Below are positions 18,021 through 18,347 of a DNA stretch of 64,000 nucleotides, one piece after another. The DNA is from a phage. Position 1 is the stretch's first letter; every line of letters starts with the position of its first letter. Below the pieces are notes generated by a model. That model did no database searches. It was not told the origin of the DNA and saw nothing but the letters and a program-made list of their open reading frames with translations. Both the position numbers and the translations under genes were made by a program. The stretch lies in sequence record PZ091942.1. One strand, given 5' to 3'.

Positions 18021-18347
18021 ATGAGCTGGGGTGGTGTAATTACCTTAACCTGTATCTTTATCGCCTGTGTAGCTCTTACAGGCTGCGTACAGCATCGTCC
18101 TGATGGATGGTGTGCATTATCGGTAGAAGGTGTCTGTGTTTCCCGTTGGCATAGCGGGGAGAAGATTCCTAGTGGTGAAATTGATATGCGTTATGCTGGT
18201 GCTTCTTGTTCCAATGGCGGTGCTGTTGACGAGAAGGCTTATGCAAAGCGTGATATGGCTACCCAAGGTGATTGGTCACGTTATGACTTCATCTCCCGTG
18301 GTGAGCTGTGTGGTGGTTCTGTGACAACAACAGGTAAGGAGTGGTGA
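18021..18347 (+). CDS. lipoprotein (lipobox LTGC)
   Basis: ORF track; AGGAGGG SD; signal peptide ending ALTGC; Cys-rich mature part. Confidence 0.6.
   Translation: MSWGGVITLTCIFIACVALTGCVQHRPDGWCALSVEGVCVSRWHSGEKIPSGEIDMRYAGASCSNGGAVDEKAYAKRDMATQGDWSRYDFISRGELCGGSVTTTGKEW

Follow-up and report, generated by a model that had tools for sequence, protein, structure and literature searches.

Which phages would a small, predicted outer-membrane lipoprotein keep out when a podophage encodes it directly behind a tRNA gene, in a probable early block? The question is raised by a gene at 18021..18347 in a 64,000-nucleotide (nt) stretch of phage DNA (sequence record PZ091942.1); the whole stretch is referred to as the window. 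The preliminary description of the gene, made from the sequence alone, proposed a factor for superinfection exclusion or receptor masking. Homology to Rtp45, the lipoprotein through which siphophage Rtp excludes superinfection, and the genomic context support that idea and narrow the target to LptDE. With a probability of roughly 0.7, we read the product as an early outer-membrane lipoprotein of the Rtp45 family that docks on LptDE and blocks an LptD-dependent receptor-binding protein (RBP), its likeliest role being exclusion of the phage's own kind. Judged by its sequence, the phage is a podophage of E. coli belonging to the Gordonclarkvirinae, the phiEco32/SU10-like group. Megablast of 17500..19000 found 109 phage records, all of them phiEco32/SU10-like podophages of E. 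coli or Shigella within this subfamily, and the closest was ECBP2 with 96.4% identity. The gene and its parts are as follows.

18021..18347, plus strand: lipoprotein gene, ATG start, 108 amino acids plus stop; Rtp45 family (PF24052, phrog_4281), putative LptDE-binding superinfection-exclusion lipoprotein

18011..18017, plus strand: Shine-Dalgarno sequence AGGAGGG, 3 nt 5' of the lipoprotein ATG, read from the sequence

18021..18083, plus strand: signal peptide, residues 1-21, MSWGGVITLTCIFIACVALTG, with uncharged n-region, hydrophobic core and lipobox LTG

18084..18086, plus strand: codon of Cys22, the predicted lipid-modified +1 cysteine, aligning with Rtp45 Cys20

18087..18206, plus strand: Rtp45-homologous core, residues 23-62, with the cysteine pair RPDGWC31...GVC39 and the hairpin VSRWHSGEKIPSGEIDMRYAG

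18207..18311, plus strand: podophage-type insertion, residues 63-97, bracketed by Cys63 and Cys97, a probable second disulfide

18312..18344, plus strand: conserved C-terminal strand GGSVTTTGKEW, found in siphophage members too (Rtp45 GSVRDYGSKEW)

Assignment to the Rtp45 family was carried by profile and database matches. Pfam PF24052 ('Phage lipoprotein family') was matched over profile positions 1-80/80 with E 3.5e-36 and 123.4 bits against a cut-off of 27 bits, and phrog_4281, the PHROG that also holds Rtp45, with E 2.3e-34. The sole significant sequence match in the PDB was 9RPS chain D, which is Rtp45 (E 1.4e-15). These matches make the gene a divergent representative of an established family, and its phiEco32 copy is already annotated as a lipoprotein. 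In an alignment of 92 family members C22, C31, C39, G52 and G60 were invariant, and G21, R26, G29, G37, G46, V49, D55, R57, G99, E107 and W108 were nearly so. The strong PF24052 membership together with the invariant cysteines argues against a chance hydrophobic open reading frame (ORF). The mature chain was 44.6% identical to Rtp45, and its first 40 residues were 52.5% identical; Rtp45 and the Oekolampad-type exclusion protein share 40.7%, so the latter lies no closer to Rtp45 than the window protein does. A profile search of 1.84 billion representatives returned 21 matches at E<=1e-3, indicating a small family without a link to a larger one.

The leader ending in ALTGC that had been pointed out in the preliminary description was borne out, and the strong AGGAGGG was present as claimed. 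The N-terminus reads MSWGGVITLTCIFIACVALTG followed by CVQHRPDGW, with the lipobox L(-3) T(-2) G(-1) C(+1) at residues 19-22 and a strongly hydrophobic signal-peptide core (mean Kyte-Doolittle value 2.8). The residue at +2 is valine, not aspartate, so by the established +2 rule outer-membrane sorting by Lol is expected. In Rtp45, the equivalent Cys20 is the lipid-anchor cysteine (PMC12685063, SI Fig. S5).

The predicted fold agreed with the sequence matches. The AlphaFold2 (AF2) model of the lipoprotein had a predicted local distance difference test score (pLDDT) of 82 overall and about 95 over residues 31-60. Its only credible Foldseek match was 9rps_D (probability 1.00, template modelling (TM) score 0.77 normalised to the target), with an E value of only 1.5e-3 and a root-mean-square deviation (rmsd) of 9 Å over all columns, which is attributed to the podophage-type insertion; the next match had E 2.2. 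Cys31 and Cys39 align with Rtp45 Cys30 and Cys38 and are predicted to form a disulfide, and the hairpin VSRWHSGEKIPSGEIDMRYAG aligns with a 21-residue segment of Rtp45. The insertion lies between hairpin and C-terminal strand, was modelled with lower confidence as two short helices, and varies in length, which gives ortholog forms of 93, 99 and 108 amino acids.

What such a fold does is known from Rtp. In the Rtp genome work of Wietzorrek (2006), cloned rtp45 reportedly made cells resistant to Rtp. Rtp45 was seen by cryo-electron microscopy on Shigella flexneri LptDE with LptM (PMC12685063), a mechanism solved in 2025. It docks near strands 5-8, on the periplasmic rim of LptDE in its closed state, where its residues 30-35 pair with LptD 318-323 and a Cys30-Cys38 disulfide staples it (PMC12685063). 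A long hairpin runs up the LptD lumen and lifts extracellular loop 4 by up to 20 Å, by which RBP binding is blocked; LptM remains bound and LptDE stays in the closed resting state (PMC12685063). Predictions of complexes by AlphaFold3 were wrong even for Rtp45 (PMC12685063). In BASEL-1 the allele at the RBP/superinfection-exclusion locus tracked LptD dependence without exception, and loci for other receptors were arranged differently.

A candidate for the RBP to which the lipoprotein would correspond is encoded near the end of the window.

62155..63186, minus strand: candidate cognate RBP of 343 amino acids (SU10 gp19), DUF6453/phrog_1265, homolog of Rtp44 and RBP_Oeko

63188..64000, minus strand: tail needle, equivalent to SU10 gp18 and truncated at the end of the window, directly upstream of the gp19 gene

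The protein, here called gp19, matched Pfam DUF6453 with E 2.4e-25 (Rtp44: 1.4e-113) and phrog_1265 with E 1.5e-104 (Rtp44: 8.8e-99). Its sole significant PDB sequence match was 9rpt_C (E 1e-12; the one other match listed had E 3.4), the LptD-binding RBP of phage Oekolampad in complex with open LptDE. The AF2 model (pLDDT 86, predicted TM score 0.87) gave one significant Foldseek match, to the same chain (E 4e-13, TM 0.80, rmsd 3.9 Å), followed by a match with E 0.04 and TM 0.09. By tblastn, Rtp44 and Rtp45 each matched exactly one site in the window. No match to the window lipoprotein or to gp19 came from T1, a phage with FhuA as receptor and Cor as exclusion lipoprotein, whose J protein shares 57% identity with Rtp J. 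The needle carries a lambda-J-like Phage_Tail_Tip domain (PF09327, E 9.3e-26); tblastn also matched it weakly to the T1 and Rtp J proteins, in their C-terminal part. A gene for an SLT ejection protein lies downstream of gp19.

Variation of gp19 points in the same direction. Relative to ECBP2 the body of the gene (62155..63114, minus strand) is a swapped cassette: amino-acid identity is 45%, conservation is limited to roughly the first 24 codons, and the borders are sharp, with flanks of 96-97.5% nucleotide identity on both sides. The window allele is 100% identical to that of phage TH34 and 87% to SU10 gp19. Over the Gordonclarkvirinae, identities span 45-100% for gp19 and 72-100% for the short fibre. 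A swapped body behind a conserved anchor, together with such wide variation, is a pattern typical of a receptor-binding protein.

The distribution of the pair was counted in a phage collection, where the short-tail-fibre marker defined a Gordonclarkvirinae set of 99 records. All 99 carried gp19, with the same organism breakdown as the marker, and 97 of the 99 carried the podophage-type lipoprotein. A distant SU10-portal contig of 100,570 nt has the lipoprotein in its early block and a DUF6453 gene as well, and the order needle-DUF6453-SLT is kept.

The placement directly after a tRNA gene, in an early block and outside a lysis cassette, was confirmed for the first point and is supported by synteny for the second.

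17927..18002, plus strand: tRNA-Arg(TCT), 18 nt 5' of the lipoprotein gene, the sole tRNA of the window

The phiEco32 ortholog gp106, annotated 'putative phage lipoprotein', also lies 3' of tRNA-Arg and begins with the same leader (MSWGGV...LTGC). It is of the 93-amino-acid form, with an insertion 15 residues shorter, and is 65.7% identical; its records name a lipoprotein only. The leftward cluster of phiEco32, mostly genes of no known role, was experimentally determined to be of the early class (PMC8948821). The position of gp106 inside this cluster suggests, by synteny, that the window gene is likewise early.

Transferred by homology, the Rtp45 mechanism would run as follows. The lipoprotein would be produced early in infection and leave the cytoplasm through Sec. 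After its lipidation at Cys22, Lol would deliver it to the outer membrane's inner leaflet, as lipobox and Val at +2 predict. Its disulfide-stapled core would dock on the periplasmic rim of LptDE and its beta-hairpin would be pushed up the LptD lumen, so that extracellular loop 4 is displaced and an LptD-specific RBP is unable to bind. Later phages of the same type, and LptD-dependent siphophages, would still touch O-antigen but could not commit at LptD, and progeny would be spared loss on LptD in lysis debris, as with Llp of T5. Exclusion through LptDE is supported by homology and context. Since the phage carries its own homolog of an LptD-type RBP, we infer that exclusion of its own kind is likelier than pure competition with siphophages.

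What is added here is the pairing of an LptD-type RBP with the lipoprotein and, for an entire podophage subfamily, a prediction of the receptor. In Gordonclarkvirinae the terminal receptor has so far been described only as 'the cell surface', and the SU10 structure gives gp19 no role. We propose, at about even odds, that these phages (phiEco32, SU10, BASEL Bas86-94 and the window phage) use LptDE as terminal receptor, that gp19 is a low-copy RBP on the tip of the J-like needle which triggers nozzle formation on LptD, and that the lipoprotein is the matching self-exclusion factor. A therapeutically used subfamily of E. coli podophages would then have retained both halves of an LptD recognition and exclusion module that was known only from small siphophages, and would share it in split form. 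An essential, conserved protein receptor would be named for the Gordonclarkvirinae and gp19 would gain a function. The recovery of O-antigen-loss mutants only would be explained by the essentiality of lptD, and cross-exclusion would be predicted between kuraviruses and LptD-dependent siphophages in cocktails.

Several observations weigh against the reading as an LptDE-directed self-exclusion lipoprotein. The n-region of the lipoprotein holds no lysine or arginine, of which a PROSITE-type side condition asks for one in the first seven residues. The leader (MSWGGV...) is near letter-for-letter identical among E. coli Gordonclarkvirinae orthologs, and 11/11 members of this type in the 92-sequence alignment are free of Lys and Arg. 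The other relatives in the alignment each have at least one, except P0082, which is probably truncated at the N-terminus; extended-type relatives in other, more distant SU10-like contigs have normal MK/MKR leaders and keep the second cysteine pair. The 35-residue, Cys-bracketed insertion is not present in Rtp45 and could change docking. The gene lies 44 kb from gp19 (18021 versus 62155) and is not adjacent to it. The lipoprotein gene of Rtp, Bas85 (Dhillonvirus) and mEp021 adjoins the gene for an RBP of about 310 amino acids, downstream of a J-like tail-tip gene. In Weberviruses of Klebsiella and Enterobacter the gene for the PF24052 lipoprotein is flanked by those for VRR-NUC and Dam, with some 10 kb between it and the DUF6453 gene, so that adjacency of RBP and lipoprotein is frequent, not universal.

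The remaining objections concern gp19 and the receptor. gp19 is just 22-25% identical to proven LptD RBPs, and its specificity could have drifted. In SU10 Supplementary Table 1, gp19 (343 amino acids) is given 'no/no' in two yes/no columns, whose headings were not retrieved; terminase and scaffold are also 'no/no'. In the SU10 study the major gel bands alone were analysed and the needle map had a resolution of 10-15 Å, so gp19 at one to three copies could have escaped notice. The main text of the SU10 paper mentions neither gp19 nor LptD nor a lipoprotein. Receptor data for kuraviruses indicate O-antigen only, resistant mutants having lost it, and the literature on Gordonclarkvirinae receptors names O-antigen and, for the short fibres, a surface receptor that it leaves undefined. 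A literature search for kuravirus, Gordonclarkvirinae or phiEco32 with LptD or Rtp45 returned unrelated co-mentions only and no paper linking them.

The alternative that survives best, although we regard it as unlikely, is that the lipoprotein binds LptDE solely against other phages, namely Rtp-like, Dhillonvirus and Queuovirinae siphophages, while the podophage itself makes no use of LptD and gp19 is not a virion RBP. The SU10 table, which does not mark gp19 as a virion protein, and O-antigen as the sole documented dependence of Gordonclarkvirinae phages fit this view, as does the place of the lipoprotein gene among early host-takeover genes, distant from gp19. It is also in line with this view that the window phage and ECBP2 have one and the same lipoprotein (100% identity) and gp19 alleles with just 45% identity. 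However, a periplasmic blocker acts on the receptor and need not co-vary with RBP alleles, which counts against siphophage-only exclusion. It would also be hard to explain why the whole subfamily retains both halves of an LptD module if only one were used. The constant position of gp19 between needle and ejection proteins in all 99 records, and in the distant lineage too, speaks for a virion role, as does its RBP-like allele swapping. Self-exclusion through LptDE is preferred here to siphophage exclusion alone.

It is improbable, in our estimate, that the fold was kept and the target changed, so that the podophage-type lipoprotein and gp19 are both directed at another outer-membrane protein; the function would still be exclusion. 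The insertion, 15-35 residues long and with an extra Cys pair, would fit such retargeting, and so would the low identity of gp19 to LptD RBPs, since RBP modules of small siphophages switch receptors through allele exchange (BASEL-1). On the other hand, conservation in the window lipoprotein is highest where Rtp45 touches LptD, in the strand that follows Cys30 and in the hairpin, and the lipoprotein stands no farther from Rtp45 than SE_Oeko does. The different arrangement of other-receptor loci in BASEL-1 and the lack of any similarity in the FhuA phage T1 also favour LptDE as the target.

A further possibility, which we consider very improbable, is that the lipoprotein inhibits lipopolysaccharide (LPS) export. 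Plugging of the LptD lumen would stop insertion of new LPS and O-antigen, weakening the envelope or hiding the primary receptor, and exclusion would be a by-product. This would suit the hairpin of Rtp45, which extends up the lumen, as well as the need of Gordonclarkvirinae for O-antigen and the location in an early host-takeover block. The Rtp45 complex, however, keeps LptM and a closed resting LptDE, and inhibition of LPS transport by Rtp45 appears nowhere in the data; a lytic cycle of 30-60 min would presumably leave little time for LPS depletion to count.

Finally, a lysis o-spanin, or a non-lipoprotein with a chance hydrophobic N-terminus, might be imagined from a small lipobox protein without positive charge in its n-region, but is dismissed in view of the family match, the invariant Cys, the absence of an adjoining i-spanin gene and the phage's own overlapping pair at 49288..49780.

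49288..49635: i-spanin, a lysis gene 31 kb from the lipoprotein gene

49520..49780, plus strand: likely o-spanin, 86 amino acids, lipobox LSAC, overlapping the 3' end of the i-spanin gene

The location outside the lysis cassette was thereby upheld. An i-/o-spanin pair is listed for phiEco32 and ECBP2 in the spanin catalogue of Kongari et al., and the holin and endolysin of ECBP2 sit in the late block. The ECBP2 annotation at the spanin locus names an 'Rz-like spanin' only. O-spanins of the Rz1 type are likewise small phage outer-membrane lipoproteins; the window protein differs from them in lacking an i-spanin partner and in its early-block location, where its neighbours are a tRNA and small ORFs for soluble or membrane proteins.

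Comparison with known exclusion lipoproteins places the window protein closest to Rtp45 (9RPS chain D, UniProt Q333D9), with which it shares PF24052, phrog_4281, the lipobox Cys, the Cys pair, the hairpin, a C-terminal ...GKEW and the predicted fold. Rtp45 has 76 amino acids, three cysteines and a K-containing leader, and is encoded in a siphophage beside rtp44, downstream of J; the window protein has 108 amino acids, a 35-residue insertion and an uncharged leader, and its gene, in the early block of a podophage, stands 44 kb away from the RBP-like one. SE_Oeko (Bas18_0026) and Bas85_0028 (Dhillonvirus) belong to the same family and are paired with a DUF6453 RBP (LptDE complex solved, 9RPT); they are 32% identical to the window protein, lack the insertion and adjoin the RBP gene.

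Llp of T5 resembles the proposed factor in being an early, small outer-membrane lipoprotein that acts on the periplasmic face of the phage's own receptor, FhuA, and remodels its extracellular loops (PMC12685063). The primary receptor of T5 is O-antigen; pb5 then engages FhuA, and FhuA is blocked by Llp, an order of events that parallels the scheme proposed for the podophages. Llp works by long-range allostery on a TonB-dependent transporter, whereas Rtp45 works by steric displacement in LptD (PMC12685063). Cor of T1, phi80 and N15 (phrog_1119) is likewise an exclusion lipoprotein of small size, and its gene lies close to the RBP locus in siphophages that depend on FhuA. No Llp chain was found among the PDB sequence matches of the lipoprotein (E<=10) or among its Foldseek matches, and neither a phrog_1119 match at E<=1 nor a tblastn match in T1 was obtained for Cor. 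Kinship to Llp or Cor was rejected, as similarity of sequence, profile or fold was not detected.

Two sets of database records of this family call for comment. Annotations in the Weberviruses conflict: the gene at 3995..4222 of Klebsiella phage Solomon is labelled 'receptor blocking protein', and in Enterobacter phage F20 the label is 'PDDEXK-like family protein'. Seven records named 'Campylobacter phage' (e.g. A123, MG065669.1, UNVERIFIED) encode a PF24052 lipoprotein and a DUF6453 protein and are classified as Drexlerviridae (Tempevirinae); their Campylobacter host label looks doubtful.

The surroundings of the lipoprotein gene are compact. One base separates its stop codon from the next ATG (18349), a gap that suggests tight coupling of the two genes. 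Two translationally coupled ORFs follow at 18349..18830 on the plus strand; the first encodes a soluble protein of 84 amino acids (phrog_13462), and the second, overlapping it, a protein of 88 amino acids that matched no family and is predicted to have two transmembrane helices. In a scan of 14-21 kb, terminator-like hairpins at 16452..16477 and 19022..19041 were found to flank the lipoprotein unit. A promoter scan of the same interval gave 10 promoter-like sites against 15.6 expected from shuffles and did not decide on timing. A tRNA-Arg beside the lipoprotein gene is found in phiEco32 and Bas88 too, as context only. In the 100,570-nt contig a cluster of ten tRNA genes (17369..20022), one of them for tRNA-Arg(TCT), lies some 7 kb downstream of the gene for the lipoprotein; the window has a single tRNA gene.

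Upstream of the tRNA, 17609..17917 (plus strand) encodes a protein of 102 amino acids (phrog_23590) with a classical Sec signal peptide, MKQKHFIISTLLLMTTIGIISVNSA followed by E at the cleavage site. It is a second early envelope-targeted product near the lipoprotein, situated between small ORFs and the tRNA, and is missing from many relatives, whose megablast matches start only past that gene. The small ORFs, at 17012..17590 (plus strand), are three tandem paralogs of 61, 54 and 69 amino acids with the pattern MIKW[LF]KR.FH.H.W ... CK.CG, likely a small zinc-ribbon-like family.

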